Shown: one piece after another, positions 1,015 through 45,697 of the stretch
Layout of the letters: the number at the start of each line of letters is the position of its first letter
How positions within the stretch are numbered: the stretch's first letter is position 1
IMG/VR virus record: IMGVR_UViG_3300035698_011202
Span: 1 to 64,000 of that record
Direction: 5' to 3' (one strand)
DNA from: a virus
Length of the DNA: 64,000 nt
Notes under the pieces: generated by a model
The model's input: only the letters and a program-made list of their open reading frames with translations
Told to the model about the DNA's origin: nothing
The model's database searches: none
Program-made: the position numbers and the translations under genes

Positions 1015-1560
1015 CTAAGCTATTCTGTTCTTTAGCCAACCAAACAAAAACGTTTCGTTAGTTTCAGTTTTTTCACTGATGCGAATGTAGTATTCGCCCT
1101 GCAAACAATTTAAAGCTTTTAGCAGTACCGCCTCACCGTGGAGTGTACGTTGACGTAGAAAACTACGTAATGCTTCCTGAGTTTTCTCACCCATGATGCC
1201 ATCCGGTGTTATGTCAAGATAACTGCGCTGCTTTTTATTCAGCGAGTTTAAGGCGCGTTGTAACCAACGTATAGCCGTGACTTCACCGCAATTTATACCG
1301 CTATCAAATACTTCTTCTGCAATGCGTGAGGACTCTTTTTCGATTAGGTCCAGTTGTGGTTGATACCAATACTGCTCAGCGTAGATTTGCACTGCTTCGT
1401 AGCGGGGCATACGTTCCATATCCCCGTAGTACCCAAACTCTCTAGCGACCGCTATGGTAATACCAAAATTGGTTTCACCGCCTGCGTCATCAGGGTTGTT
1501 GACATAACCGCCTTCTTTTTGAATAACGGAATCAATAAACTTTTCTAGTACAGCCCGCAT
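1015..1560 (-). CDS. Endolysin, glycoside hydrolase family 108 with peptidoglycan-binding domain
   Basis: EGGYVNNPDDAGGETNFGIT catalytic motif, DGIMGEKT, terminal GWLKNR. Confidence 0.92.
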   Translation of the reverse strand: MRAVLEKFIDSVIQKEGGYVNNPDDAGGETNFGITIAVAREFGYYGDMERMPRYEAVQIYAEQYWYQPQLDLIEKESSRIAEEVFDSGINCGEVTAIRWLQRALNSLNKKQRSYLDITPDGIMGEKTQEALRSFLRQRTLHGEAVLLKALNCLQGEYYIRISEKTETNETFLFGWLKNRIA

Positions 1561-2259: not shown

Positions 2260-2316
2260 CGTTTAACAGGCATAGCCATCTCCATCACTCATCGTCAACC
2301 ACAGGAATTTTAAAAG

Positions 2317-6000: not shown

Positions 6001-9000
6001 CCCTCATGTATAAATATAGCACCACTACGTATAAAGCCATTGACTTGCAGACCTGCTCCACTGCCTGATGTTATCTCACCGTTTATGTGCAATTTACTAG
6101 ATATGGAAGCAATGCCCGTCATCACAGGGTTAGTAGATTTAACAAAATCAGAGGCGTGTAATCCGTCTAACTTATCAGCATCCAAGCCCGAACCTGTACC
6201 GTGGTTCATAGAGTTCCAAGAGTTTACCAACGTACAAGAAACTTTTTTAGTGCCTGTAGGCTCCACTTCATCAACAATACGCTCAACTGTGTTTACGTTT
6301 GTCGCTCCTCCCGCGTCCCTTACATGAACGTTAAAAGAGTTCCAGTAGGACTGTCTAGGCCACCAAAAACACAAGACACCTTGATGCTCTAATAATTTTA
6401 TAACCCCGTTAAAGTTACCCCCGCTGTTTATTCCCGAAACGCTTAATATAGTATCGTTATACAAGTATCCTTGAACCGTTATGATAAATGGAGGATTGCT
6501 TGAAGAATAACTCTTGCCAGATACTTCCATGACAAAAGAAGCACCGTTTTTTGCAGTTGCAGCAATACGAGTCTTTACTAGCGTTCCATTAACAAAGTTG
6601 CTTCCTGACTGTATACGGTCTAATTGCTGTACAGTAAGGCCATTAAGAAGGCCCGCATTAGTAGCATTAGTAGCATTAGTAGCATTAGTAGCATTAGTAG
6701 CATTAGTAGCGTTAGTAGCTGTGGCTGCGTTGCCTGTAATGCTTTGAGGTATATTGCCCTCGTGTATTAACTTCTTCCAAGACGCAAAACTAGCGTTAGA
6801 ATACCTACGCATGTAAAGGTCATCGTTATCACCAAAAGCAAGTTGTTTTCCATAAGGCCCGCTATGGCTATTCATCCATACAACACCGTTAGCATTATTA
6901 CCGCTAAAAGGTTTGTTGCTAGCATCCCCGCTATATCGTTGATACGTTAGAGTGTCAGCAGAAGTATTTGGAATCGTATTTAAGTTGCCAGTGCCTCCTC
7001 CTGATAATGTCTTAGCACTATTTGCGTTACCACTTAGATTACCTTCAAAATTTGTTGCTTTAACTGTACCTGTACTGCCTTCATAAGTGAAGGAAGTGTG
7101 ACTATGTATTGTACCGCTCACGTTAACTGTGACAGGGTATTTACCACTAAATGTTGTAGGAATAGACGTAAGTTTTGTCGCGGTTGATGAGTTACCTTCT
7201 AAAGCTCCCTTGAACGTTGTCGCCGTAACTTTCTTAGTCGAAGGGTTGTAATTAAAATGTGACCCAGAATCATATAATTGAGAGCTACCATTATGCCAAA
7301 CAATCGAATAATCAGTATTATTACTGGTATTCTCTGACACTAAAGACTTACTTGCACGTCCATCTAAGGCTCCTTTAAATGTTGTTGCAGATATTTCACC
7401 CGCTCCGGGCTTTACCTCTATAGTAGTAACAGACCTGAGATCAGAACTATTAGCAGCATGGAATACGAGATTAAAAGAATCAAAGGCAGAACTGTTTTGT
7501 ATTATACTAGCAGGTATTGAAATATCTGCAGTGCCGTCAAAACTTACACCGTTTATCTTTCTTGACGAGTATAGCTTAGTAGCACTAACCGCTTGACCTG
7601 AGTATTCCGAAGTGCGGGCAGTGTCTGCGTTTCCTGACAGTCTACCCTTGAATATGGAAGCTTCTACAATCCCTGTACTACCTTCATAAGTAAACGCGCT
7701 ATGGCTGTTTATTATACCATCAACACTCGCAGCTACAGGATGCTTCCCACTAAAGTTTTGTGCTATATAAGCTAACTTAGTAGCTGTATCGGCGTTACCT
7801 ACTAGCCCACCTGCAGCATATAGTTTACCGTCAGTCCTGAAGTCATAGTTACCGCCTGTAGCATTTTGACTAGTACCAACTGTGGTAGTGTGAATAGCCG
7901 TTGCGCCTGTGTATGAGTGACTGTCTTGAAAAGAGACAACTTCAGTATTAGCTGTAAATACGTCACACGCCATGTTAGTGCTACCTGAGCCGCCTAGACG
8001 CATAACTTCTATGGCGAATTTGTCATTACCGTTACTCGTAATCCTTATAGAGAGTTGCGCATAAGGCCCAGAGTGGCTTTTCACTAATATATCATTAGAG
8101 TGACTACACATAACATTTACTTCTGCGTTTACTACAACACCACTACTAGTCCCCGTAAAAGAGAAAGTAGCGTTAGAAGCAAGACGAGAGCCTGTAACTA
8201 CAGCTATTACTGTATAAGCATCTTTTGTAATATTAAAAGTTGTACTGTAACGTTTCTTAAAGTCTACATGAGAGAAACTATTCAATTTTGCAGAGTCACT
8301 AGAATAACTAGAAGTAAACGCGTTACCAGTAGTATCTTGATTAAGGCGTGGTAAGTTACTAGCAAAAGAGTTAAGAGTTTGCCATCTCAAGTAGCTATCT
8401 GAACCTGTTGAAATTGCAATCCTATCAGCAGTAACAGCAGTCTCGTTAGCAGACATGTTAAAATAATTGCTAAATATGTAACCATTTTGATGTCTAACTA
8501 CTAATTCGTTACCTGTAAAATCACCAGACCCATCGTTGGCATGAAAGCCATCTACAGTGTCTGCGTCTAAGCCAGAGTTAGGCCCGTGATTTACATCATC
8601 CCATTGCTTACGCCAATTAGACCATGTCGAGTTATATGCTCTTGTGTAAGATTCCCCGTTTACATAGTGTATCGCATGTTGAGCTACTACATTATTATTG
8701 TTACCAAAAGTATTTATTGCGTAGTGTTCTGTAGTAGGATTATTAACATGTGGATCAAATCGATAACCCGATGTTTTACGAGTAGCATTAGGATTTGTAA
8801 AAGCTCCATTTCCTGCCCAAGCAAAGTCATCAACATCTCTAGTACCTAGCAAACTAGCAGTACTCGCGCTACTTGCTGTTCCTGTCAAGTCGCCTACAAA
8901 TACAGCGTGTAAAGAGCACAACGTTGTATGGTCCAGACCATCAGCGAAATAAAAGTCACCATCGCTGTGTAATGCTAAACGTCCTTGTTGCCTACTACCC

Positions 9001-12187: not shown

Positions 12188-15100
12188 TTATATGTTGGTT
12201 ACAGTGCATGTGAGGTTTAAATCCGCGCCATTAGCTACGTCAGTAAAGTCCACTTTTATAGTCTTAAAATTTAGCCCTTGTGGGTCTTCACCATCAGCCG
12301 CAAAAAGATTAGTTGAGGGGGATAGGGACACGTAATCTCCACTGGTTGTGACGTAAACTACTCGCCCTTCATTAGTCCATTTATACTTATATTCACTGGT
12401 GTCATAAGCGGCTACACCGTTAATAAATATATTTGCCGTAATACTTTTTAACGCACCTGTGTTGTTTCTAAAGTAGTTTCCGTTGTCACTTAGAAGCACC
12501 ATTTGAATAGTCTCGCCCTCAGTTAAAGGCAACCACGTATAGATGCTGGCATCCGTAATGATGGCTTGTGCCGTCGTATGTCCTGAACTCAATCCTTGCC
12601 AGGTTAACTCGCCAGCGGAAGTACTAATATTTGTACCCACGGCATCCTCGGCATACGCGGTCCATGTATATAATATTTGTTCTGTGCCAAGGGCTGAGGT
12701 GAGCCTCCATGTGGTATTGCGGTTGTTATCTGTAACCAGTCGATACCAGACATGGTAAATTTGGTCTTTGATAACATTGCCAAAGGACAAACTAGTGTTT
12801 GAACCTACAGGTTTCGCAATTTCAAAATTATCAGACGTGCTGGTTTTAAATTCATAAGTATCAAATTTAGATTCAACTACAGGGGGAGTGACCGTGATGG
12901 TGCCATTGCTCGATGTTGTGTTAGGTGCAACATCTGAGGTATCTTTTTGCAATACAACCAAGGTTTGAGTAAATATTTTTCCATACCCTAAGTCTGAGCT
13001 AACAGGCTGAATAGTGAATGTGTACGTACCCGCTGAAAGCGTTTCAAGTGTAACTTCAGCACTGGTAAGGGTTTGCTTCTTTAGAATGTTTCCGGTGAGG
13101 GTGAGTAACGTAAATTCGTAGTTAGCTGAATCATCCGTCCACGTAATTAAATACTTTCCAAACGCACTGGTTTGTTCAGTGACTACAACGTTCGTAATTA
13201 AAGCCTGCACTGCCTCAATCGTTAAGATGTGGTCGTTTACCGCAAGGGCAGGGTAACGCTCATCAAAGAAATCGTGAAACGCTACACGTACAATTAACTT
13301 GCTAGGTAGAAATACTTGTTGTGACGCTTCTTTGAACTGACTCGCGGTTAAGATTAAGTTGGGTTGAGTTTGAACAGTATTAAATAAAAACGTGTTGTTG
13401 CCATCAGAATCATCAAAGATTGAAAAAGTTACACTAGATAAATAGCCACCTGTTAATAGGGCTACAGGGAGGCTAGTGACTGACCCCACAACATAGTTAA
13501 TATCTGCGTAGGCTTTTAATATTCCATTCTTGAAGCTGCCATACATAAGAGGCAATGCGTTCTCTTCAATTAGGTCAGCCGCCGTGACTCTTCCTAATTC
13601 GTAGGTTAGCGAAGTTACCGCGCTTTTAGTGCCTGACCGCTCAGCGGTGACTCTAAATTCGTACTCTGCAAACTGTAACCCTTTTATCTCAGTAAAATTT
13701 TCTGCAGTATTAACAACTCGACCTATCGACGTACCATTGCTAAAGACTTCTACGCGGTAAGATGTGCCAAACTGACGGTCTTCTTGCTCGTCCCATGAAA
13801 TCCACGCGCTAACTTGAGTGCCTTGCAAGGTATCTACAATAGACTCGTTAACCACAACTAAATTGGTGACTCTCTTTAATGGCGCTAGGAGCTGGAATGA
13901 GTACTGAGGTTGAGTAGCTTGCTTGAGTAAATCAGCTTCAGTGTGCTTTTCAGAATTAAACTCCACCGCTGAAATAGAAAATAATTCTAGGCCAGTATCA
14001 TCAGTTGGCTCAATCGATGTGATCCTATAAAGTTTTGGAAAGCCTATTTGCTTATCAGACCTTGCTCGGTTTCCAATATGCACTACCGGATAATCACCAA
14101 GACTACTCGCCGCAGGATAAGGACGACTTAACGTAAACTTGCGAAGAGGCAGCCCGACTTCAGTATCTTTTATGGTAATAGTAGCGTCAAAATCTTCCGT
14201 AAGTCCTTGCAACGTAAGGCTGTATAAACCGGATTCAGCAAAGTAAATTGGATCTCTTACCGTCAGCGAAAACGTATCGTTAGATACCACGCGGCCCGAC
14301 ACACCATGTCCCATCACAGGGTCTACTATCGCTACCACGTCATAAACTTGGAACTGCACACCCGATAAGGGCATGACAAAGTTAATCGATTCAGTTTCAG
14401 TTTGCCCAGCAACTAAAAATACCAGCGCCTTACGCTCAGCTTCCCACGCATTCGTAGTGCCTAACGACACAAACTCCGTGACATTTAAACCATGACGGTC
14501 AATGGCATCTTGGTTTCTTATCTCAGGTAATTGCTGCGTCGCATACTCACTGTCTTTATCGATAAAGCTCGTAGATACAGCGTTAATCCGCGCCGACGTA
14601 CTAGAATAAGAATAACTAAACGGAGACTCAGAGCTAGTTGATACTGCCATTTCTGCCGTAATAAAGGCCACTGGCACCGTGGGCATGTCGGTGAGTATTT
14701 CTATTTCACCATCATCGTTTTCTAAAATTACCGAAAACGTAGTGGCTAGAATTTTATTAATGAACTCCATGCCACTCATCCGGTCACTTAATACCGCGTT
14801 AAACGTGTATCGAGCTACGCCGGTTTCTGATGTATTCGGATTTTGTAAGTCTTTTGCGTTACTGAAAGCGTTATAACCATCTGCGTATTTAGCTTTGTCA
14901 TAAACTGAATACTTGTTTACTTTCACATTAGGGTTGTAAGAGATAACACCAAACACTTCGTTAAGTATTAGCTCATTGACTATCCAAAAAGGGTTGTCGG
15001 TAGGGAATCGCTCAGGAGCGTACAGGCCATCCCACGCCGAGCTTTCGTCATAGGTCTTAGTACGTGGGTTGTAATTAGATGGAACGCGGCACAACAAGCC

Positions 15101-18069: not shown

Positions 18070-18118
18070 GATACTAAATTGACGATGAGAAATGGCATCT
18101 GGCGACGCCATCAAACGA
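18043..18118 (-). ncRNA. Predicted ~75-nt small RNA antisense to the TTGACGATG start-codon motif
   Basis: Sigma70-like promoter upstream, 5' hairpin AUGGCGUC-GCCA-GAUGCCAU, unpaired UUCUCAUCGUCAAUUUAGU, intrinsic terminator; both stems need G-U pairs that form only on the minus strand; 5' end approximate. Confidence 0.75.
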
Positions 18119-34134: not shown

Positions 34135-36372
34135 TTAGTATCGTGTGATAATTTTATCAGGCGAATAACTATTGCCAAAGCCAATCAAGTCTTGCGCCCC
34201 AAAAAAGTCCTCACTTTCGCCGGACATTAGCATGTTGCTATGACGTATACCAGATAGCCCCACGGTTAAGTTGACGAAGGGTTCTTTGCCTTCTACGTAA
34301 CGATAATACTCAATAGACCCAAACATATAACCTAACGCATGAAAGAAGTGGTCGTTACCATTTAATTTAACCCAGACCGGAATCTTCTCGTCGTTTTCTT
34401 CTCGTACCATGTCTACTAAATGCTCTATAATCATGGTCTTGAATTTACCAAACCCATCGAGGAATAAGTTTCGCTTCTTAATACCAAAAAACACGGAATC
34501 TAGGACGTGGGTTCTGTTTATCTGAACGTAATCTAACTTGTCTAAGCCATCCGTGACCAAAGCAATAGGCTTGTTGACCGTGTAATGAGCAGGAGCAATT
34601 TTTCCATCACTGGCTTCGCGTATAGCATTAGCCGTGGGTGTGTAAGGGTAACGGTCCATCAGGCCACTGATGATGTTGTATTTAGCTCTCATGCTGTCTA
34701 CAAAAGACTGGATAGCCGATGAGGGGCACGTCATAAATTCAACTACGCGAATTTTTTCAGTCCCTTCCATACGCGCTACAACAATGTGACACGTTTTACC
34801 CACGTCTATACCTATGAAGTGGGGTAGGGTGTTATCGACAGGCGGGCATCCAGCGTAGCCAAACATCGCATCGACATCGCTGTCCGACATTTTCTGGTCT
34901 TCATTGGTGTAAGGCTCACCAAGCACCGTGTTGTGGAAGCCTTTTAAATTATCCTTTTCCAAGTACTTGAACATCTGAGTAAAACAATAAACAGGGTCCA
35001 GACGGTGTGTTGAGAAAGTCCTGACACGATAGCCTCGGTTTAAAGTCCTACTTGGATACTTAGCCACCCACTCACGATTATCATGGTCAGCAAGATTAAG
35101 AGGTTTGTGGCATTTCTCGCAATAAACTTTCGCAGTCTCAAGTTTAACTTGTCCACTATCAACAAGCTTAGATGAAAGGTGAATAAAACTATCACAATCA
35201 TCAGGCATACCATCGACACGAACAAAATCGCGGTTAAATAAAGGAACTTGGTGATGATTGCAAGCAGCACATTTAAGAATATATTCATGTTGGTCACTTC
35301 TAGCATAGCCTTTGTCAACACCAAACCCTTCATAGGTAGGTGTACTAAACCGCTGGCTGACTCGGTGGTCTGAACCCTGCAATCGAGAGTTGAACAAAGA
35401 CAGCATATCGGGGGGTGTTAAATCAATTTCATCGTTAAATACAAAGTCAGCATTGATAGATGTCGCATCTGCCTCGCTTGAGCCGGTGACATACAAGTAC
35501 GACGTACCAATTCTCATCAAATCCATGGATTGTTGCGTCTTATCTTGGGCATCTTGCCTGAATGCTTTGTCGTATTTCAGCAAGGGCTGGATACGCGCCT
35601 TAGAAATACGCTTAAACATTCGCTCGTTGGGCATGGTGTAGATTAATGACGTATTGGGTGTACGAATTAGCAGCGTTATTGCTTTGCGAATTTGTATCTC
35701 AGTGTTGTGCGTCGGTATCATTCCTCGACCACACAAAAACAAGTGAGAAGGTGAGTCTACTGATATACATCGAACAGGTACGGGGTCACAGGCTTTGATA
35801 GATTGTATGTAGTGGTGTCCAATCCCGTTCGCGGTGGGTATTCGTATCGTTCGACCCGTTACTAAATGGGCTAATCGATGAGTTGGATGCACGTTGACTT
35901 CTCTGTGCAGCTTAATTCCGAGAAAGTTGACGTAAGTTTCTACTTTCCAGCGATGACCAGCATCAGCGATTATTTTTTCCCCTCCTTTGAATTTTATTTC
36001 AAAGCAGTCATGGTCTTGATAAATGGGTGATACGTAAGTGACGTTGCAGTGCCGTAGATTTTCGTCAAAGACCACATCCCCCACATCAAGAGCGCCCATA
36101 TTACTAAACCCCCCGAGTACACGAACAGGCGTATCTAGCGCCAAAGCAAGACCAACCTGCGATGGCTTGATTACATCCATGTTTGGGTGCATATCGTCGG
36201 CTATCTGTTTTTGGAACGGGTATCGGTCAAAAGAGAAGGGGCGTTTGTTAAGGCTAGTGTTGGCACACATCCAATCGCCATGGCTCATATCAGCCGAATC
36301 TTTGTTATAGCGACCATTAGCTTTAGACACGAAGCTTTGAACAAAGCTGTTCTTTTTCATTCTCATCGCCAT
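34135..36372 (-). CDS. terL: Terminase large subunit (GpA-like) containing a mini-intein
   Basis: YPFQ adenine-binding motif, KPSQVGL|TE Walker A split by the intein, FNDEID Walker B, STPT, Zn fingers, GIDVG nuclease; start may be ATG at 36366. Confidence 0.92.
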   Translation of the reverse strand: MAMRMKKNSFVQSFVSKANGRYNKDSADMSHGDWMCANTSLNKRPFSFDRYPFQKQIADDMHPNMDVIKPSQVGLALALDTPVRVLGGFSNMGALDVGDVVFDENLRHCNVTYVSPIYQDHDCFEIKFKGGEKIIADAGHRWKVETYVNFLGIKLHREVNVHPTHRLAHLVTGRTIRIPTANGIGHHYIQSIKACDPVPVRCISVDSPSHLFLCGRGMIPTHNTEIQIRKAITLLIRTPNTSLIYTMPNERMFKRISKARIQPLLKYDKAFRQDAQDKTQQSMDLMRIGTSYLYVTGSSEADATSINADFVFNDEIDLTPPDMLSLFNSRLQGSDHRVSQRFSTPTYEGFGVDKGYARSDQHEYILKCAACNHHQVPLFNRDFVRVDGMPDDCDSFIHLSSKLVDSGQVKLETAKVYCEKCHKPLNLADHDNREWVAKYPSRTLNRGYRVRTFSTHRLDPVYCFTQMFKYLEKDNLKGFHNTVLGEPYTNEDQKMSDSDVDAMFGYAGCPPVDNTLPHFIGIDVGKTCHIVVARMEGTEKIRVVEFMTCPSSAIQSFVDSMRAKYNIISGLMDRYPYTPTANAIREASDGKIAPAHYTVNKPIALVTDGLDKLDYVQINRTHVLDSVFFGIKKRNLFLDGFGKFKTMIIEHLVDMVREENDEKIPVWVKLNGNDHFFHALGYMFGSIEYYRYVEGKEPFVNLTVGLSGIRHSNMLMSGESEDFFGAQDLIGFGNSYSPDKIITRY
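35704..36147 (-). mobile_element. Class 3 (Ala1) mini-intein, 148 aa, no homing endonuclease
   Basis: ALALDTPV N-terminus, ADAGHRW block B, VRCISV block F, IPTHN|T block G. Confidence 0.9.
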
Positions 36373-36434
36373 AGTTTAATTTTATGCGTGATAAGGTATC
36401 ATTTGTAGCGAAACATACAATATGGCAGATGACG

Positions 36435-36917
36435 ATGAGCAAGCACTACCCCGAAATGGATGCTCTTAGTATCCAACGATTTATCATTATAAAAAATATG
36501 ATGGATAACGACCCCCTGTACCTCGATGATGACCATTGCCCCTATGATTATGAGGTTGTTCAAAAGCTAAGACAGCTCCTAGATACCCCTAAAGCGCCGG
36601 TTTCATTTGTGGCCGAAGTCGAAGACCTAAATGAGCTTGATGAAATCGATTTTGAAGTGGAAACCAAGAAGCTGTTCCGCGATATAAAGCTGTTTAAAGC
36701 CACACTTAGTAATGATGACTCATCCGAGCAAGTGCAAACCTTTAGAACCATGGTGACACTTATCGAAAAAATGATTGAGTCACAAGAACGAGCATCGGGC
36801 ATCAAACAATTTACAGCCTTCACCTCAATGATTATGGACTCCATGGATAGGTATCTTACCCCTGTTCAAAAAACCGAGTTCCTAGAAACCCTCGAACTTA
36901 CATTGGATAGACAATAA
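36435..36917 (+). CDS. Helical hypothetical protein, candidate terminase small subunit
   Basis: Divergent neighbour of terL; coiled coil; start context ATGACGATGAG. Confidence 0.4.
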   Translation: MSKHYPEMDALSIQRFIIIKNMMDNDPLYLDDDHCPYDYEVVQKLRQLLDTPKAPVSFVAEVEDLNELDEIDFEVETKKLFRDIKLFKATLSNDDSSEQVQTFRTMVTLIEKMIESQERASGIKQFTAFTSMIMDSMDRYLTPVQKTEFLETLELTLDRQ

Positions 36918-36919
36918 TT

Positions 36920-39319
36920 ATGTTTGAATCCCTGTCCCGACAAGCAATTGAACTAGGTTTACCTCTAATCCCTGTTTTTCAGGCCAGTGGTTTACCTTGC
37001 GTCACCGATAAAATTCTACCACGGGCTTTTGACCCTTTAATTCAAGCTAGTATGCGTACCGAGCACCCAACTAAAAACGCCTGTATCTCGTTAGACACAT
37101 TAGGTGACAATGGTTGCCGCTTATATGTGGTCGAAGTGTTCGATTCTCGCATTAACCGACTGCTACAGCCGACTGCAGCATTAGGCCATAAGTTAATTTA
37201 CAAAACTATGGACCCCACAGGCAGAAAAGACTTCGATGTTTATAACCTTGAAGGCGATGTTGTGGTGTCTGTTCAGTTGCGAGGGTACGTCACGGTACTG
37301 AGTGCCACGGATTTACCGAGCAAACACGCAGAAATTATAGTCGTAGACCTGCAACAGTTAAGAGAAATACTGGCTGAGGTAGGTGAAATACGCACTCAAA
37401 ATGACCCTTATACCCGTCTACCCAGCACTTTTGCTCAATTAGACTACCAACTAAAGAGCAAAAACGGGCTGTTTGTGGCTAATTTACTGCTAAAAAGCAA
37501 CGAAAACACCCGAGTTCTTCCGATTTTGCATGAAATTGACGCGGTTTATGCCCAAATGACCGTAAAACTGCTAAAAGACGCTCGATTGGCCCATTCTCCG
37601 GTGGGTTTGTATATACAACACTTTCTTAGTTTATTATCAGAGCAGATTCACGAAAATAAATTGAAGTTACACCCTGACGCGCTGCGAGGTATAGGTGCTC
37701 AGTACAGCGAAAAATACTTTGTGTCGTTGTCAAAAGACGACATTCAAATGGATTACGAGGACTTTAAAACGTTCGCACTGCGCCTAATGTCAGCCGCAAT
37801 AGGCAGTGAGCAAAAGATGTTGGTTGCTTGCCAAGATATTTTTGATGAAATGGCTTTATCAACCGCGCTTAGCAAAATACAGCTGGACCAGTTCAAGCGA
37901 TTCGTGTCACGGCAGTCTGCGATGAAACTCAACATGAATAAAATTGAATCTCAAATACTTGAAACCCGCAAAGAACGCTTTGGCCTTGGGTCGTTTAGCA
38001 ACACACTTGGAAAAGCTATATCCACCCTAAACCTAATGGGTGACTTTCGCTACGACGGAATTATATCCAGTGAACTGCTTCGCTGGTCGGGTGCGTTCTG
38101 GGAAATTTACCCTGATGTTGAACTTCGACAATTCATTAACTACTATTTTGCGTCAAAAGAAATACAGCGTTCAATATCCAAACTCAATGAAATGTGTGAG
38201 TCCATCAAGCGCCAGTTCGCCTCCTACTTGCCCCCTACATCGGGCGTTAACTTTTTAAACTGCTACTTGGATGAGAATTTGAATACCTTTAGCCATGACC
38301 GCCGACAAGGGTTTACGTATGCCTTCGATTTTGAGTACAACCCTGAATTACCAGACCCTGCATTATTCTTAGACTTCCTAAACGATTGCTTTTGTGAGCA
38401 AACGCCTGCAGACCGCGATCGGAATATTAATCTGGTTAAGCAAACCATCGCTGCCACCTTGTTTCAAAAAGGCCCATCACTACAAAAAGCAGTGTTACTT
38501 TATGGCGCAGCCTCGACAGGTAAAAGCCAGCTACTTGAAATAGTAAAGCGGTTAGTGCCCTCGCACAAAACCTGTGCCATCTCTCCTGAGAAGTGGAACG
38601 AGGCGGTCCAAGCTAAAGGACTAAACGACAAGCTCTTGAATGTGTGTGGTGAGCTAAGTGAAACGAAATCGATAGATGCCCAGCGGTTCAAAGACATAGT
38701 AGATGGCAACCCGATTACTCACTCCACCTTGAGTACAAGCTTTACCGTAACGCCACATTGTACTCACTGGTTCGCATCCAACCACTTACCTAAATCCAAA
38801 GACCCCACAGAGGGCTTTAGCCGCAGATGGTTGATTATACAATTCGACAACGTAGTTAAGCCACACCTACGCGTACTAGATTTAGGCTCAAAGATAGCCT
38901 CAGCTGAAAAAGAGCAAATTGTAAATTGGGCTAGTAAAGCAATCACCCAATTAAACGAGCAGCGCAGTTTTGACCTAGCGCCTAATGACTTAGAAGGAGG
39001 TATCGCTCGTATGAATAACAACGTTAGGTATTTTATAGAAACAGCGTGTACCACTCACAATCTGTCTTGGCTAAAAAGCCTCGAAAAAGATGAATTGACC
39101 CAAGAACTGACAGCCTTAAAACCCACATCACTAAAATATATTTATACAAAGTACAGCGTGTTCGTGAAAGATATGAATTGTGGCGCGGGAGTAGACGAGC
39201 AGGAATTTATTATGAGAATGAGGCATCTTGCGGCAATGTTCGGCTTCATCTCTGTGGTAGGAGCAGCAGCAAATCGACGTATAATCGTACAGTATTATGG
39301 GGTGGTTATATGCGCTTAA
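36920..39319 (+). CDS. P4/D5-family SF3 helicase with degenerate prim-pol-like N-terminus
   Basis: LYGAASTGKS Walker A, KLLNVCGEL, WFASNHLP, GFSRRW; D5_N-like region. Confidence 0.85.
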   Translation: MFESLSRQAIELGLPLIPVFQASGLPCVTDKILPRAFDPLIQASMRTEHPTKNACISLDTLGDNGCRLYVVEVFDSRINRLLQPTAALGHKLIYKTMDPTGRKDFDVYNLEGDVVVSVQLRGYVTVLSATDLPSKHAEIIVVDLQQLREILAEVGEIRTQNDPYTRLPSTFAQLDYQLKSKNGLFVANLLLKSNENTRVLPILHEIDAVYAQMTVKLLKDARLAHSPVGLYIQHFLSLLSEQIHENKLKLHPDALRGIGAQYSEKYFVSLSKDDIQMDYEDFKTFALRLMSAAIGSEQKMLVACQDIFDEMALSTALSKIQLDQFKRFVSRQSAMKLNMNKIESQILETRKERFGLGSFSNTLGKAISTLNLMGDFRYDGIISSELLRWSGAFWEIYPDVELRQFINYYFASKEIQRSISKLNEMCESIKRQFASYLPPTSGVNFLNCYLDENLNTFSHDRRQGFTYAFDFEYNPELPDPALFLDFLNDCFCEQTPADRDRNINLVKQTIAATLFQKGPSLQKAVLLYGAASTGKSQLLEIVKRLVPSHKTCAISPEKWNEAVQAKGLNDKLLNVCGELSETKSIDAQRFKDIVDGNPITHSTLSTSFTVTPHCTHWFASNHLPKSKDPTEGFSRRWLIIQFDNVVKPHLRVLDLGSKIASAEKEQIVNWASKAITQLNEQRSFDLAPNDLEGGIARMNNNVRYFIETACTTHNLSWLKSLEKDELTQELTALKPTSLKYIYTKYSVFVKDMNCGAGVDEQEFIMRMRHLAAMFGFISVVGAAANRRIIVQYYGVVICA

Positions 39320-39420
39320 AAATAGTTATAGCGTTTTATACTTTAGTATAATGGACGTTAGTTTAATGGGGACTGTTTTTTATATTGACAGATTTTAAAA
39401 ATAGGCAGAAACTCCCGCCC

Positions 39421-39521
39421 GACGGTGAGTTCAGAACATAGTAAAAAAAAGACGATGAGTTCAGAACGCAGTAAAAAAATGACGATGAGTTCAAAACGCA
39501 GTAAAAAAATGACGATGAGTT
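39421..39521 (+). repeat. 30-bp tandem repeat (3 full units plus a partial) carrying GACGATGAGT
   Basis: GAC(G)RTGAGTTCARAACRYAGTAAAAAAAW units seen directly. Confidence 0.95.
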
Positions 39522-39584
39522 AAATCAGGCAACATACCCTTTAAAGCTTATTCTATTCGTGGCATTCGCGTGGGCGTGAACATC

Positions 39585-39619
39585 AAGCCCTCACTTCTTT
39601 GAAGTGGGGGTTTTCTTTT
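39585..39619 (+). terminator. Intrinsic terminator
   Basis: AAGCCCTCACTTC-TTT-GAAGTGGGGGTTTT then CTTTT. Confidence 0.75.
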
Positions 39620-39953
39620 GCCCGAGTTTCGCCATGACACATAGACCGGCCCTTTCAAATTCCCTTTCAAATTATTAAATATTCATAGCTTTTCGCTTTT
39701 CGCTTTTGGCTCTAGCTTTTCGGTTTGAGGTATGAACTTCTACCTCCGTAAAATCCTAATTTTTTTCAGCTGGAGTGAGGGCACAACCAGACTAAGGTGT
39801 TGTTTCTGTTGACCTTTTTAGCCGATACCCTTAATATATGTGGGTCGGATAAGGAGTCTGGCAGGGGGTGCAAATGTACCCGTTCAAGGCACAAATGTAC
39901 CTTGTTACTTTTAATTAACTCAGGTGGGGACTCCCCACCAAAAGGCAAAAAAA

Positions 39954-40832
39954 ATGACCACATCAAACGTAGTAAATTCAGTAAACGTAGTAAATCCAGT
40001 AAAAGCTAACTTCGAATTTTTACTAAAAAAGGACAAAGAAATTCTGTTCAATAAAGTTGGTTTTGCCGTGACCCTAGTATGTAATGGGTTGGTTGATATA
40101 GGTCAAATTATTGACCATATCGATGCAAGAAATGACGCGAATGGTATCGCTCAAATTGATTCTCAATGTGATGGATTTAGTCAGATTAAAGGTTTTGTGA
40201 AAGACTTCACAAAAAAGCTAGTTGAGTTGGAATTTTTACCAAAAAGTCACTTGAATATTGGCGAATGTAAACCCGCTCAGTTCACTGCTTATGGTAAATT
40301 CTTGCTTGCTGGCGGCACAAAAGACGCGTTTATTAAAAAGTTATCGGCTATGAATGGCGATTACGAACGCGCTGCTAAGTGGAATACTTTGTTAAATTCG
40401 TTCCCAACGCTAGCCGGTTTTGAAGGCGCTGAAGGTCAACCGCCAGTGCTACCTGCTGAAGTCTTAGCATTAGCCGAAAACTTAGAGCGCGACCATGCCG
40501 ATGCGCTGAATATCAACGCGATTTTAATCGCTAACGATAATGCTAAGTTTGATGCCGCATTGGCCATTGTGAATGCTCGGACCAACGCCATAGAAGCTGC
40601 TAAGCAGTCGCTAATTGATGCCGAAGCTTTACCGCTAACAGGTGGGGACTCCCCACTAGAAGCGCCAACCGAAGTGCTAACAGGTGAGCGATTGACCGAA
40701 GTGCTAGAAGCCGTGAACAATAAAGTCTTAACTAATATTGAGCTGTTAATGAATGATTACATCGATGCTAGTTTTGATGCGGTTCAAAAGGCAAAAGTTA
40801 GAAAAATGATGATTGCATTTGCCCAATCGTAA
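39954..40832 (+). CDS. Early hypothetical protein (about 292 aa)
   Basis: Long ORF after hairpin and AAGG RBS; followed by a terminator. Confidence 0.7.
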   Translation: MTTSNVVNSVNVVNPVKANFEFLLKKDKEILFNKVGFAVTLVCNGLVDIGQIIDHIDARNDANGIAQIDSQCDGFSQIKGFVKDFTKKLVELEFLPKSHLNIGECKPAQFTAYGKFLLAGGTKDAFIKKLSAMNGDYERAAKWNTLLNSFPTLAGFEGAEGQPPVLPAEVLALAENLERDHADALNINAILIANDNAKFDAALAIVNARTNAIEAAKQSLIDAEALPLTGGDSPLEAPTEVLTGERLTEVLEAVNNKVLTNIELLMNDYIDASFDAVQKAKVRKMMIAFAQS

Positions 40833-40848
40833 AAACAAATAACCATCC

Positions 40849-40875
40849 AGAACCCGCTGACAAGCGGGTTTTGTT
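40849..40875 (+). terminator. Intrinsic terminator
   Basis: AACCCGCT-GACA-AGCGGGTT followed by TTGTT. Confidence 0.75.
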
Positions 40876-41084
40876 CTCGCGTGACGCATGACGCATGACG
40901 CGTGACTCCCCTTGTACCATTTACTGCCCACCGCTAGGCGCTCACAGTGAGCGCCTTGCTGTGAGCTGTGTATTTTGCTGGGAATAGTAAAACGCGAGAC
41001 AAAAAAACTGGGGCATTTTTGGCCCTATATATCGCGGGAAATTTAATTAACTAACGGTGGGGACTCCCCACTAGGAATATAAAA

Positions 41085-41576
41085 ATGTCTACTTTACAAG
41101 CTAAGCAAATCCTTAAACTAAAAAGCCTTGTAGCTAAGGGTACAGCGTTGTACCAGTTGCACAAAAGCACAACGTTCTTGAAAGGGAGCTACGACAATGA
41201 AGATGGGATATGCGTCGTTGTCCTGCCTATGAAGTGCGATAACGACAACAACTATTATGACATGATAGGTGAAAAGCTCACCTGTGATATGGACTTTCCC
41301 GAAGATGGAATAGCCGTTTCCATGTCTGGCGACGCTAAAGAGCATTATGAATATGTCACTAGCGAGTGGGTTATCTACCCCCTCATAGCCGAGTTAGGGC
41401 TTGTAAAAAGAGTAGATGAAGATGGGAGGCTACACATCGATATACCCAAACTAGACGCGATACCAAGGTTTATGACCGGTGAATTAAACCTTCAAAATTT
41501 TAAGGGTAAGACCGTAGCATTTTGTCAGGCCAGTGGCTTGAGCATTTTGGAAACAGACCTAGCGTTAACCGCTTAA
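41085..41576 (+). CDS. Hypothetical protein
   Basis: AGGA RBS after palindrome. Confidence 0.7.
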   Translation: MSTLQAKQILKLKSLVAKGTALYQLHKSTTFLKGSYDNEDGICVVVLPMKCDNDNNYYDMIGEKLTCDMDFPEDGIAVSMSGDAKEHYEYVTSEWVIYPLIAELGLVKRVDEDGRLHIDIPKLDAIPRFMTGELNLQNFKGKTVAFCQASGLSILETDLALTA

Positions 41577-41624
41577 TTTAATTAACTAACAGTGCGGACT
41601 CCGCACTAACAATTGGAATTGACG

Positions 41625-41807
41625 ATGGAAACAATAGTATTAGTAATACTTGTACTAATCACCTTTTGGCTTGCCCTAATGGTCATTAAAATTACCCTTA
41701 ACGCTGCTTTATCGTACAAAAAACGGGTCACAATTCGCAGAAAGATGTTCATAGCGCGAAAAAAAGCGCGTGAAAAATATTTTAAGCACCTGTTTTTGCG
41801 CGATTAA
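41625..41807 (+). CDS. Small membrane protein
   Basis: N-terminal TM helix, basic tail; starts at TTGACGATG. Confidence 0.65.
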   Translation: METIVLVILVLITFWLALMVIKITLNAALSYKKRVTIRRKMFIARKKAREKYFKHLFLRD

Positions 41808-41939
41808 GGTGGACGGGGGGGATAAAAACGCAGTGCAATTTCACCCCCAAAGTCAACGCGCACTGCTCACCGCTAACATGAATAAGCTCACCGCTAACAT
41901 TCACTTTTTACTTAAATCTTCACAAAAGGGTCTACCACA

Positions 41940-42185
41940 ATGTCCATATTTTCAATAATCGCCAACACGTTTAGCGTCAACAAAACGATGTTATCTGCCT
42001 CAGAAATGCAATTACTGGCATCTATAAATGCGTCTGCCCGTACATTAAAAGCGCAATTAGAGGCCAAAAAATTGGGCGCTCAGCGTGCAAAAGTCCAAGT
42101 AAAAGACTGCTACCGTAGCAATAAAACCCTGTTACGGACTCCTATTAGTACAAAAATTGCACGAAAAGCCCCTATTAATCTATAG
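41940..42185 (+). CDS. Basic hypothetical protein
   Basis: ORF on the expected strand; weak RBS. Confidence 0.45.
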   Translation: MSIFSIIANTFSVNKTMLSASEMQLLASINASARTLKAQLEAKKLGAQRAKVQVKDCYRSNKTLLRTPISTKIARKAPINL

Positions 42186-42728
42186 CTTTGCGGGCTAGGG
42201 TAAATTAGTAGGTTAGTAGCCACTATCGCTTTATGCCGTCATATGTCGGGTCTTGAGAAGAATAAAGTGTACAGAATCAAAAATAGCAGACATTTTTCTT
42301 ATTAAAAACATTATGTATTAATTAGAAATATGAGTGTGATCTAAAAAAGAGCCATCAAAAAAAGAGCCTACAATTTAGTTCCTAAGCGTGACCGCACGAA
42401 AGTCCTCAGGCGACATCCGACAGCTAAGAGTCCAAACGCGCCAACGTCATTGCTGGGCGATTTGACTTTTGCTCCTGTATCGCTCGGTGTTGATATATAA
42501 TTTTATAGATATACCAATGCTTAGGTTGATGCTCGAACGTGTCACCTTGCTATGTTTGCTTTCGTATTTCGGGTATTGTGTCTGCTTAGTTTGCCCGTAG
42601 GGTATGAAGGTATTAAAAAGCTTGCAATATATTATTCTTTGATCGAATAATACTCACAGTAAATCGGGGATTAAGACCTGATTACTATTTTATAGATGGG
42701 GACTCCCCACTAACAATTGGAATTGACG

Positions 42729-43259
42729 ATGACAAACACGACATTTGTATGCTCTCAACGAGCGACGCAGAAAGAGATTTCTGAGATTCGCCTTCAAGTA
42801 TTCACATTGGGTAATCGCCTAAATAATTATCGCATAAATAATGCGGTGCGAGTTCGTGCTGCGTTGGGCGATTTGTTGCTTGCCTCCATACGCCGTGAGG
42901 CTGAGCTGACGGCGTTATTATCCTTCCTTAATACGACGTGTCGTATTCTCAATAAAAAGCCCATAACACCTCACTGTGAGGTTATTACAAGCGATTTAGA
43001 CGATGCGGTGGGTAACATCATTGGATTTAAGAACGATGGCAAGGGTTTCGCCATCATTCCTACATTTAGGGAGTTGGGCGCGGTGTTTGTTCCGACTCAA
43101 TATAAAGTGACGTTGTTGCGTAACACTGATTTCGAAAAGCTTTACATTGTAATGCTAAACGACGAGCTAAAGGCTGACTTTCTAGGCCGCCAGCAGCTTG
43201 TTCAAGAGCATAACGCCCTAGTATTGAGGCATACCCACCTTATGTGCCTCTTAGCTTAA
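42729..43259 (+). CDS. Hypothetical protein
   Basis: Starts at TTGACGATG after palindrome. Confidence 0.7.
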   Translation: MTNTTFVCSQRATQKEISEIRLQVFTLGNRLNNYRINNAVRVRAALGDLLLASIRREAELTALLSFLNTTCRILNKKPITPHCEVITSDLDDAVGNIIGFKNDGKGFAIIPTFRELGAVFVPTQYKVTLLRNTDFEKLYIVMLNDELKADFLGRQQLVQEHNALVLRHTHLMCLLA

Positions 43260-43427
43260 CAGCGAGCGAGTGGGGAGTCCCCACTCAAAACTTAAATTAA
43301 CTTGAAAATTGGAAATTGACGATGAAAAATACTTCGGTATCAAATCTAACCTGTCCTCAGGTGTTCAACTAATGGCGGTCGCTACGTTCGACACTCAGCG
43401 AGAATTAGCTTCTTGGGTGAATAGTTT

Positions 43428-43796
43428 ATGACTGTTCTGATAGGTGAAATGCTGACCCGTGAGCAGTGTTGGCTTGAATATCATGCAAACCGTGATTTTG
43501 AGGCAAGTTACGATGCTTTTGAAATGGGTTATCACTCTGTGCTGGGTCAAAACACCTGTTCGTGGGCTATTCACATTGATGAAATGTCACGCGGTCTTTG
43601 TGATATTTCACGGGAAGAAGCCTTCGACTTAATGGAGGCGCATGAGTGTGAAATCCAGCGAGAATATGACCGTTATGCCCCGCCTGAAGAAACTGAAGAA
43701 GAAGCTCAGGCTTACTTCGAGTTTCACCATCTAAAGCCTGTGACAGCTCCATACTGGCAAGTGTGTGTGGCTAAAATAGACGCGGCTTTAGCTTAG
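43428..43796 (+). CDS. Acidic hypothetical protein, 5' end possibly frameshifted
   Basis: ORF; the upstream motif start at 43322 is in another frame. Confidence 0.5.
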   Translation: MTVLIGEMLTREQCWLEYHANRDFEASYDAFEMGYHSVLGQNTCSWAIHIDEMSRGLCDISREEAFDLMEAHECEIQREYDRYAPPEETEEEAQAYFEFHHLKPVTAPYWQVCVAKIDAALA

Positions 43797-43815
43797 AATC
43801 GGTGGGGACTCCCCA

Positions 43816-43990
43816 CCAATAAAACGGTGTGACACCTGTAAAATTGATGACCAATAAAACGGTGTGACACCTGTAAAATTGACGATGAGAAAACAGTGTG
43901 ACACCTAATAGTGTGACACCTATCAAATTGACGATGTGAACAAACAGCAAGGTTTTTGCCTTGCACTCCAATTAAATTGACGAAGAGATA
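43816..43990 (+). repeat. Composite repeat region: 35-bp duplication, four GTGTGACAC palindromes, several AAATTGACGATG copies
   Basis: Seen directly. Confidence 0.9.
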
Positions 43991-43993
43991 ATT

Positions 43994-45697
43994 ATGACTG
44001 TTATTGCTATGAGTAAAATCGAAGTACAAGCCCACTTTGCAGATAAAATGGACAATTGCCATCCTTTGGTTGCCGATGCGATTAACAATTGCGTTGGCGG
44101 GTTGCAAATCCGATCCGTGTTCAAGCCTGAATTAAACAGAGAGGCGTTACAATCCAAAGTACAGGTAGCTTTGAGAAAGTTGGCTGCCCACCCTATAGGT
44201 GAGCGTAAAAAGGGTCGTATCTTGGGTGAGGGCAGCAGCATGGATTTTAGATTACACCTAAGTATTCATCAAGATACCCCTTATATGGTGAGTAATATCA
44301 ACGAGATTTGGGTCAACTATATGGTCACGGGTGACATGCCTGCTGAGCGGTCTGTGGGCAGTAAGTTAATGCACAAGGGTCGTGTGCCCATTTCTAAAGT
44401 AGTGTCTGATTTCAGTGATGGCTTGTGCGGTATATTTCGCAACCAAGACCAAACGGTCAAGGACTTTATTGCTGAGATTAACCAGTTGGTAAGTTCCAAT
44501 ATATTTGTGATGACTAAAAGTAAGCTCAAGCATCACTATCAAACGTTTGCAAAAACTAAAAATACGACCTCTTGCATGTCAAAGCCTGACGAACAATATG
44601 AGATGGGTGGTGGTCACCCTATCGATTGTTATGAACAAAGCCCAAATATGGCATTAGGTCTAATGATTAGGCCCGATGCGACTTTTTCTGAGGACCATTA
44701 TAGTTTTGCGGGTCGCATGTTTTTCTTGCATAACCTTGAGGGCAAGTTTGTCGGACGTTCCTCGTTTTACGGCAACGAATCTCAAAAAAGGTTCATCATT
44801 GACCAACTCAATGACAGTGGTATCGACAACACGCTTTACGGCGGTTTGCTGAACGTTATCACTAACCACGATAACGAGTTGATGGTGCCATATATCGATG
44901 TATGCCATCAGCCCCATCGTGACCCTCAATCAAATAGATTGCATTGGCTAGCTGACTTGACTGAATTGCAGGACAATAATTGTATGCACTTAATCGACCA
45001 GCAAATGTGGTTGGAAAAAGGTAAAAAGTACCTTTTTATTGGTGAGCCTGAGTATTGTGGTAATGAGCAGTATTTTCATGGAGAGGCCAGTGACCAAGGC
45101 CGCAAAGTATGCCGTTTAGTGGACGTAGACGACGCGCAGCGGTCATGGACTGATTTATCAAAGGGTGTGGTCCTGATATATGTACCAAGCCGTGACGAGT
45201 CGTATCCAGAGGACGAAGTGGTTTATTCCGACTATTCAGACAGCTATATACACGAGGACGATGTAGTTCACTTAGTAACAGGCGAGATAATGCACGAAGA
45301 TGACGAAGGTAACGAGTATGTCCAATGCGATGACAGCGGCGATAACATTCGCATAGATAGGGCAATTCGCTCTGATTACCACGACCGGTGGTATCGAAAG
45401 GATTTGCATGGCGATATTCTTAGTTATTGCTCAGAAGAAGATGACTATTACTTAGACCACGAAGAAGATAACTTTATGGAGTATCACGGCTACGTTCAGG
45501 TTGTTGATATTTACGGTGATAAGGAATGGTCTAAAAACGCGGTGTTTTCTGAGTTTAGAGGTGCCCATCTTGACGGCGATAGCGCCATTTCCACACCCAC
45601 CAATGATTATATCTATTCAGAAGATGTAATCGAGTGGTTAGAGGCCAATGATTCGTACGAGTACGAGTTTGGTGAATTTACAGAAAAAGCAGCATAG
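43994..45697 (+). CDS. Phage protein with SCM motif and acidic C-terminal repeats
   Basis: TSCMSK...HP...SPN...GR...FYGNE...PYID; C-terminal repeats such as VYSDYSDSYIHEDDVV. Confidence 0.75.
   Translation: MTVIAMSKIEVQAHFADKMDNCHPLVADAINNCVGGLQIRSVFKPELNREALQSKVQVALRKLAAHPIGERKKGRILGEGSSMDFRLHLSIHQDTPYMVSNINEIWVNYMVTGDMPAERSVGSKLMHKGRVPISKVVSDFSDGLCGIFRNQDQTVKDFIAEINQLVSSNIFVMTKSKLKHHYQTFAKTKNTTSCMSKPDEQYEMGGGHPIDCYEQSPNMALGLMIRPDATFSEDHYSFAGRMFFLHNLEGKFVGRSSFYGNESQKRFIIDQLNDSGIDNTLYGGLLNVITNHDNELMVPYIDVCHQPHRDPQSNRLHWLADLTELQDNNCMHLIDQQMWLEKGKKYLFIGEPEYCGNEQYFHGEASDQGRKVCRLVDVDDAQRSWTDLSKGVVLIYVPSRDESYPEDEVVYSDYSDSYIHEDDVVHLVTGEIMHEDDEGNEYVQCDDSGDNIRIDRAIRSDYHDRWYRKDLHGDILSYCSEEDDYYLDHEEDNFMEYHGYVQVVDIYGDKEWSKNAVFSEFRGAHLDGDSAISTPTNDYIYSEDVIEWLEANDSYEYEFGEFTEKAA

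Follow-up and report, generated by a model that had tools for sequence, protein, structure and literature searches.

To our knowledge, the phage riboregulators described so far each control a single transcript or a few, and the phage sponges described so far target sRNAs of the host. The anti-sRNAs of enterohaemorrhagic Escherichia coli (EHEC) prophages, reportedly named AgvB and AsxR, act through single sites and with Hfq on sRNAs of the host core genome. In the FinP/FinO system of F-like plasmids, an antisense RNA encoded in cis against one mRNA occludes the ribosome-binding site, aided by a chaperone with a FinO domain, which binds terminator-like hairpins. Decoy RNAs such as CsrB and RsmZ present GGA in hairpin loops to a protein, and direct repeats are known as origin iterons from lambda ori and from P4 ori and crr.

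Excerpts of the published reports describe prophage-encoded anti-sRNAs in EHEC (PMC4104026) and call FinO-like proteins rare in phage genomes (PMC8541194). In the excerpted account of Cluster K mycobacteriophages, the start-associated sequence (SAS) is a short asymmetric motif that lies a few bases 5' of many starts in a single orientation; at some sites, inverted repeats lie upstream of it (extended SAS, ESAS). The same excerpt reports a single inverted copy per genome, leaves the function of the SAS unexplained and asks whether an RNA or a protein binds it (PMC3203893).

The locus considered here is a 30-bp tandem array in a single phage contig of 72,231 bases with 42.3% G+C, the first 64,000 bases of which are called the window. 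Like the EHEC anti-sRNAs, the array is proposed to be a phage-borne, non-coding target mimic that titrates a base-pairing sRNA; unlike them, it would involve the phage's own sRNA and own start regions, and it has tandem sites and a ProQ/FinO chaperone as a candidate partner. The repeated motif resembles SAS and ESAS in being short, asymmetric and start-proximal, with upstream inverted repeats at some sites, but it differs in host phylum and in sequence and has extra orphan copies. In addition, the one copy that is inverted falls within a conserved sRNA that has a promoter and a terminator. In comparison with FinP/FinO, one RNA proposed to act in trans matches dozens of start sites, and a candidate decoy exists. 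The tandem arrangement of decoy sites in an otherwise non-coding RNA recalls CsrB and RsmZ, and direct repeats beside an initiator gene and near a switch in strand composition recall the lambda and P4 iterons; unlike in the latter, the repeated core recurs at gene starts throughout the genome, and relatives lack the array.

In a full-text literature search (subscription journals and supplements aside), the combination of a start motif, a master antisense sRNA, ProQ and orphan decoys was not found described. The favoured reading, held with a probability of roughly 45% on the basis of sequence, is that the array forms a target-mimic (sponge) RNA for an sRNA of the phage itself.

Genome context of the array

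The arms of the contig and the features discussed below are collected in Table 1. The 799-aa ORF in front of the array matches Pfam DUF5906 (E 1.9e-12) and several PHROG families annotated as DNA primase, and a further primase (P0001) is 99% identical to it. No integrase was found in the 72,231-base contig, the right end of which may be truncated. The nearest named relative by terminase is Pseudoalteromonas phage KB12-38 (48% identity), the genome of which contains both an integrase and an excisionase. Remoter relatives are the Achromobacter phages JWF and 2-1, Caulobacter phage Seuss, Acinetobacter phage EAb13 and Xylophilus phage Lumi.

Table 1. Positions of the features in the phage contig, numbered from the first base of the window.
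Feature	Position	Strand	Remarks
Left arm		-	lysis, tail, head, portal and large-terminase genes
Endolysin gene	1015-1560		lysis cassette
Orphan motif copy	2287-2298	-	opens a 9-codon ORF only; head of the lysis cassette
sRNA, about 80 nt (predicted)	18122-18043	-	5' stem-loop, 21-nt open stretch with UCUCAUCGUCAA, terminator with U8
sRNA promoter, sigma-70-type (predicted)	18151-18124	-	TTGACG, 16 nt, TAATAT; TG before the -10 box
sRNA intrinsic terminator (predicted)	18069-18049	-	followed by T8
Right arm	from 36384	+	primase-helicase, DNA polymerase A, 5'-3' exonuclease
Right arm, further genes		+	Herpes_ori_bp-like helicase, SbcCD-like pair, HTH_17 protein
Primase-helicase (D5/P4-alpha-like), 799 aa	36920-39319	+	directly 5' of the array
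Conserved box TATACTTTAGT	39337-39347	+	84 nt 5' of the array
Putative non-coding transcript, or 3' UTR of the primase operon, with the array	39360-39619	+
30-bp tandem array	39421-39521	+	four GACG(A/G)TGAGT copies with A-rich linkers between them
Intrinsic terminator closing the unit (predicted)	39585-39619	+	13-pair stem, T-rich tail
Short tandem repeats past the terminator	39650-39726		CCCTTTCAAATT x2, GCTTTTC x5.7
18-mer tandem repeat	39965-40003		x2.2
Second non-initiating motif cluster	43815-43990	+	copies at 43879, 43928 and 43977; upstream of the gene at 43994
ProQ/FinO-domain protein, 153 aa	genome 67374-67835 (L004:5374-5835)	+	outside the window

The sequencing runs listed for the stretch (11 entries of DNA, none of RNA) carry the label salt lake metagenome. 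A blastn search with positions 36300 to 41000 returned no match in the phage collection, and scans of viral contigs with exact peptides and 28-mers found nothing. Rfam models at gathering score gave no match in the whole window, and ARAGORN predicted no tRNA in it.

Some minor observations concern other parts of these genomes. Relatives match the large-terminase ORF (745 aa, 34135-36372, minus strand) in two tblastn pieces covering 73-80%, and this ORF may carry an N-terminal extension or insertion. A 9-bp repeat at 6655-6719 (7.2 copies, 98% matches) lies within a 2681-aa ORF of the tail region and presumably encodes a tripeptide repeat. In the related metagenome contig L005, positions 13985-14276 at the contig end consist of 36.5 copies of an 8-bp repeat, TGTCCAGA.

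A start-associated motif and its complementary sRNA

The preliminary description had called the 10-mer of the array a copy of a target motif, and the 10-mer indeed belongs to a start-associated motif, (A)TTGACGATG, that recurs through the genome. Eight exact matches to GACGRTGAGT occur in the window, where 0.21 are expected, and none of 100 shuffles contained eight or more; the four copies other than those of the array all lie at gene starts, with the ATG of the motif as start codon. When up to two mismatches are allowed, TTGACGATGAGT yields 36 matches compared with 4.37 expected, a count reached in none of 100 shuffles. The window has 32 TGACGATG sites, and 23 of these begin an ORF of 50 aa or more on the same strand, mostly with AATT(T)GGA(G/A)A 5' of them. 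The full motif, AATT(T)GGA(G/A)ATTGACGATG, is found in both the structural and the DNA-metabolism arms (for example, at 24925, 30990, 45709 and 59273). Across the whole genome, 31 GACG(A/G)TG starts open ORFs of at least 40 aa, and the core motif has 29 other TTGACGATG sites outside the array.

The gene-start copies are asymmetric, lie a few bases from many starts and follow the orientation of the genes, which corresponds to the definition of a SAS-like sequence; the units of the array are orphan copies of this motif. Beyond this genome, a 19-mer of the motif taken from the window occurs at 32 loci in about 20 viral contigs. A scan of genome contigs with the same 19-mer gave seven scattered loci, two of them in one Alteromonadaceae MAG.

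Just upstream of several motif copies in the right arm lies a palindrome, GTGGGGASTCCCCAC, with 22 matches (both strands counted) compared with 1.8 expected. In the form GTGGGGA(C/G)TCCCCAC, it occupies about 11 sites between 39924 and 59250, often 10-20 nt 5' of the start motif, and can be likened to the extended SAS inverted repeats of Cluster K phages. At the equivalent position, the related genome G010 has GGGGCATGTGCCCC.

A different palindrome, GGTGTGACACC (6 matches compared with 0.5 expected), belongs to the second cluster of non-initiating motif copies. This cluster contains a 35-bp repeat in which four such palindromes are interleaved with the three motif copies, and the copy at 43879 matches the sRNA perfectly over 17 nt. 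It looks like an operator region, or else a second decoy or a leader.

The complement of the start motif, UCUCAUCGUCAA, is carried by the sRNA. The corresponding motif copy lies at 18079-18090 on the plus strand, inverted relative to its neighbours, in the tail-gene region of the minus strand. The predicted fold of the sRNA has an energy of -24.9 kcal/mol (z -3.06), and none of 200 shuffles folded as well; the seed has a predicted unpaired probability of 0.90. Complementarity to this seed is found in the start regions of about one in three genes of the phage (roughly 25-30).

Equivalent sRNAs were read in six relatives (KB12-38, G001, G004, G005, G010 and G011), each with the anti-motif of the phage concerned and with a promoter read by eye. 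The alignment of the seven sRNAs contains 17 consensus pairs, seven of them with compensatory changes, and a conserved unpaired seed. A covariance model built from this alignment found exactly one copy in eight of ten further related records, and the two records without a match are fragmentary (24% and 45% complete). The four distant relatives JWF, Seuss, EAb13 and Lumi gave no significant match to the model; two candidates in EAb13 were discarded as insignificant (E 0.14 and 0.28). The parts of the proposed system are all short, and at least 15 related records show their conservation and co-variation.

The seed of the sRNA varies together with the start motif of each phage. In KB12-38, the start motif is (A)ATTTAGGATTGAC(A) at a variable distance from the ATG, and GGATTGACA at the gene starts is accompanied by TTGTCAATCC in the syntenic sRNA. 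The syntenic gap of this phage, after the gene that follows the tape-measure gene, contains a promoter, ATTGTCAATCCAAAT and a terminator. In G005, gene starts have either ATCGACGA or ATTGACGA, and the G opposite in the sRNA can pair with C or U. Co-variation alone does not prove pairing between RNAs, since an inverted copy of a DNA site would co-vary as well. A count of wobble-keeping and pairing-breaking substitutions (193 vs 62, and 75 vs 35 over conserved columns) was set aside; it is confounded by the G of the start codon and by GGAG/GGAA variation, and G010 was mis-anchored in the 193/62 count. Because the sRNA is conserved, co-varying and complementary, a role of the array at the RNA level is the most economical interpretation.

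A candidate chaperone is encoded further along the contig, where the ProQ/FinO ORF scores 40.3 bits with a cut-off of 27. The gene is present in all five sRNA-bearing relatives that were searched, and was not found in any of the four distant relatives, all of which lack a significant sRNA match. This co-occurrence of ProQ/FinO and the sRNA is confounded by relatedness. The phage protein would be the likely matchmaker between the sRNA and its partners.

The array and the slot behind the primase gene

Much of what the preliminary description had reported of the array itself holds on closer analysis. The four copies lie on the plus strand at an exact spacing of 30 nt (39421, 39451, 39481 and 39511), the linkers are A-rich and read AGTAAAAAAA[A/T], a good Shine-Dalgarno sequence is lacking in that GGAG and AGGA are absent before every copy, and the terminator has a stem of 13 pairs at 39585-39613 followed by TCTTTTG. 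For positions 39421-39521, Tandem Repeats Finder reports a period of 30 with 3.4 copies, 92% matches, no indels and a score of 167, and a repeat search finds three 41-nt copies spaced by 30 nt. Each unit corresponds to the start motif minus its Shine-Dalgarno part (GGA/GGAG). The remainder of the unit has three matches in the window, all inside the array. Duplication of one unit accounts for the tandem spacing; what chance does not account for is the presence of the phage's start motif in that unit.

Given the missing GGA/GGAG part and the lack of a conserved reading frame, ribosomes should not use these units. The earlier suggestion of a repeat peptide (MSSERSKKMT...), which would have 22 to 32 residues, is rejected on these grounds and is highly improbable. 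The 30-nt period does leave a frame open from GTG 39425 or ATG 39455 to TAA 39521-39523, but this frame has no Shine-Dalgarno sequence, and the equivalent ATGs in L005 open frames of 16 and 13 codons unrelated to it. In the seven aligned relatives, the motif has ATA or no start codon; the orphan in all seven reads ACAAT..GGAAAT[T/C]GACGA without variation and continues with TAA or ACG rather than ATG.

The elements proposed as promoter-like are present (TATAAT at 39347-39352 and TTGACA at 39385-39390), but they do not form one promoter, because the -10-like box lies upstream of the -35-like box. A sigma-70 scan of 36000-44500 found no plus-strand promoter-like site between 39300 and 39420, and such scans returned no promoter upstream of the array or upstream of the orphan in G001. 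A TTGACC/TATACT box read by eye has a 15-nt spacer, outside the range of the promoter scan. The TATACTTTAGT box occurs once as an exact copy in the window, is found in relatives as a single copy at the syntenic place behind the primase gene (14 loci) and is invariant in all seven aligned relatives. The box probably serves as the -10 region and as the start of transcription for the non-coding unit with the array, a promoter role that is inferred and that the scans do not support. About 120 nt past the primase stop, G001-G004 (L038-L041) have a palindrome centred on TTGACAATG (ACACAT TGACA ATGTGT); it lies between the primase terminator and the TATACTTTAGT box and may be an operator.

In L005, the primase of which is 65% identical, the stretch from the primase stop to a terminator contains two motif copies, 53 nt apart and without a Shine-Dalgarno sequence, and GCTTTTC repeats follow past the terminator, as in the window. 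In G001-G007, with primases 36-40% identical to that of the window, the primase gene is followed by a terminator and the invariant TATACTTTAGT box. Next come a small hairpin, a single copy of the motif and a conserved stretch of about 110 bases, and then a terminator with compensatory pair changes, short tandem repeats and a gene for about 300 aa that has both a proper motif and an ATG. The shared order of this slot and the TATACTTTAGT box indicate that the array stands in the place of the single orphan copy of these relatives. The arrangement is not uniform, since the orphans of G010, G015 and G011 occupy the other strand relative to the primase and run into the bidirectional terminator behind the primase gene. 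In KB12-38 and G008, no primase match was found, and the orphan copies precede the true start of an early gene by 50-90 nt, within its 5' UTR.

A regular array was not found in any of the relatives examined, which have one or two irregularly spaced copies instead. A pairwise alignment of the non-coding region with L005, made to define homologous units, was too poor for use. A TGACGATGAG-gap-TGACGATGAG pattern sought in viral contigs occurs at more than 116 unrelated loci, probably acidic coding repeats, and gave no usable lead.

The restriction of the regular array to this phage is consistent with a multiplicity that has no function, in which a single orphan copy was expanded by replication slippage and drifts in copy number. 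The poor alignment of the non-coding region even with the 65% relative points the same way, as do contigs from three salt-lake runs of related populations. These contigs are 90-99% alike, join 39419 to 39480 or 39443 to 39503, and so represent array forms two units shorter; such copy-number polymorphism is not secure, however, as assembly with 31-mers (k=31) can collapse repeats. Slippage alone is nevertheless quite unlikely, given that at least one orphan copy is kept across lineages with primases only 33-40% identical, and that two or three tandem copies are also present in G008 and KB12-38.

The extent of the transcript bears on another interpretation, in which the array RNA is a regulated target of the sRNA next to the origin or in the primase 3' UTR, and the sRNA controls replication or the stability of the primase mRNA. 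FinO-domain proteins work with antisense RNAs in the control of plasmid transfer and replication, and this interpretation, which resembles antisense copy control in plasmids, gains from that role. The evidence from complementarity favours it as much as it favours a sponge; a plus-strand scan from the primase stop (39319) to the array found no terminator-like site, L005 likewise has none between the primase gene and its motif copies, and the minimum of the GC skew adjoins. Against it, a terminator lies 5' of the unit in all seven aligned relatives, which places the unit outside the primase mRNA there, and the terminator of the unit itself lies 5' of the short repeats, so that a transcript would stop short of them. 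We regard this interpretation as improbable.

The position of the array also recalls an origin, and the preliminary description had offered origin iterons as an alternative. The array would then act as double-stranded DNA, as iterons or as a binding array for the primase-helicase or another initiator. Its direct repeats do lie immediately behind a D5/P4-alpha-like primase-helicase gene, and the cumulative GC skew is lowest at 39147, within a broad plateau between about 34.5 and 40 kb. In G001 and G005, the minimum is no more than about 0.7-0.8 kb from the equivalent slot, and the distance in G010 is about 2.5 kb; in KB12-38, the minimum adjoins a repeat-rich non-coding stretch. The intergenic region is crowded with tandem repeats, and A-tracts are present.

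However, the core of the array is not specific to an origin, as it is the start motif found at the other TTGACGATG sites, and an initiator that reads this core would bind everywhere. The remainder of the unit has no second locus, the array is not conserved in relatives, and KB12-38 and G008, without a primase match, keep their orphans elsewhere, in a 5' UTR. The spacing of 30 bp would moreover be out of phase with the DNA helix. The short repeats past the terminator, of the GCTTTTC type, are better candidates for origin iterons than the 30-bp array. The suggestion of an origin is thus weakened for the array, for which it is unlikely, and strengthened for the region, where the GC-skew minima near the slot indicate that an origin is probably close by; since the region coincides with the skew minimum, its role may be linked to an origin.

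Predicted pairing and the sponge reading

In the sponge reading, a conserved non-coding RNA of the phage contains the array as an amplified target mimic. This RNA, which would end at the terminator at 39585-39619, is taken to be either a short unit of its own or the 3' UTR of the primase operon; the plus-strand terminator, and the lack of one between the primase gene and the array, favour a putative transcript of this kind. The seed of the sRNA, predicted to be unpaired, would pair with each unit over 10 to 13 bases, whereas pairing of the same seed at gene starts would cover the start codon. The array RNA may then compete with the start regions of mRNAs for the sRNA, and this competition would determine how strongly, or when, structural, lysis and DNA-metabolism genes are translated. 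The analysis shows the sequences, their complementarity, predicted folds, conservation and co-variation; that the array is transcribed, that pairing, repression and titration take place in vivo and that ProQ has a part in them is inferred. The earlier proposal of a sponge is upheld in part, by sequence comparison, as regards the identity of the motif, the complementary sRNA and the orphans in the slot, and not as regards a promoter of its own, which the scan did not find.

The complementarity of the units to the seed resembles that of true targets, with a core common to 23 gene starts. With a 28-nt seed, RNAduplex gives -14.6, -15.2, -16.4 and -16.4 kcal/mol for the units of the array, compared with -6.5 +/- 2.4 kcal/mol for 500 shuffled units; each unit forms 10 contiguous pairs with the sRNA and three more. 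With a 30-nt seed and a wider target, the best unit, which is the last, reaches -20.4, and gene starts range from -18 to -27. According to these predictions, the array units pair less well than many true start sites. Four decoys would also be outnumbered by about 30 mRNA sites unless the array RNA is abundant.

The predicted fold is mostly open across the array and has no row of hairpins. The motif copies in the array have predicted unpaired probabilities of 0.22-0.58, and those at gene starts come close to this, with a mean of 0.48 (n = 29). Tandem single-stranded sites in an RNA predicted to be open, together with a conserved RNA-binding protein of the phage, could also fit a CsrB- or RsmZ-like sponge for a protein that binds the motif, for example the phage's own ProQ or a repressor of translation. 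This is very unlikely. Repeated GGA in hairpin loops is not found here, as the units lack the GGA part of the motif; no such motif-binding protein was identified, and the conserved complementary sRNA already accounts for the motif. Since the units lack GGA and match an RNA, the array is not a sponge of the CsrB type.

The sponge reading can be extended, more tentatively, to a genome-wide circuit run by RNA in a lineage of temperate marine and saline siphophages. Such a circuit, which is possible but on balance doubtful, would consist of the motif at about one third of the genes, a master antisense sRNA, a ProQ/FinO chaperone, orphan titrators and the four-site sponge. If it exists, one sRNA that reads a shared start tag would control the translation of late, lysis and DNA-metabolism genes of the phage, tuned by a built-in decoy. 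It would also provide a testable answer to the purpose of start-associated sequences in other phages, such as those of Cluster K. As KB12-38 is a cultured relative with a named host, the idea is directly testable.

Partners of the sRNA were ranked with RNAduplex by pairing a 39-nt seed with all seeded sites of each genome, the gene of the sRNA itself being left out. In the window genome, no unit of the array is among the top nine, and the strongest predicted partner is the orphan with the 9-codon frame at 2287-2298 (-34.2 with the 39-nt seed, -27.1 with a 30-nt seed). In G005, the orphan beside the primase gene is not within the top nine. In both G010 (-42.0, next -31.5) and G011 (-30.7, next -27.2), which are the two ranked relatives with an orphan that converges on the primase gene, the best partner is this primase-side orphan; in KB12-38, it is the 5' UTR orphan (-40.3). 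In G001, the primase-side orphan is third (-30.4, with 19 contiguous complementary bases), and the strongest predicted partner lies 5' of a holin-like ORF rich in membrane spans.
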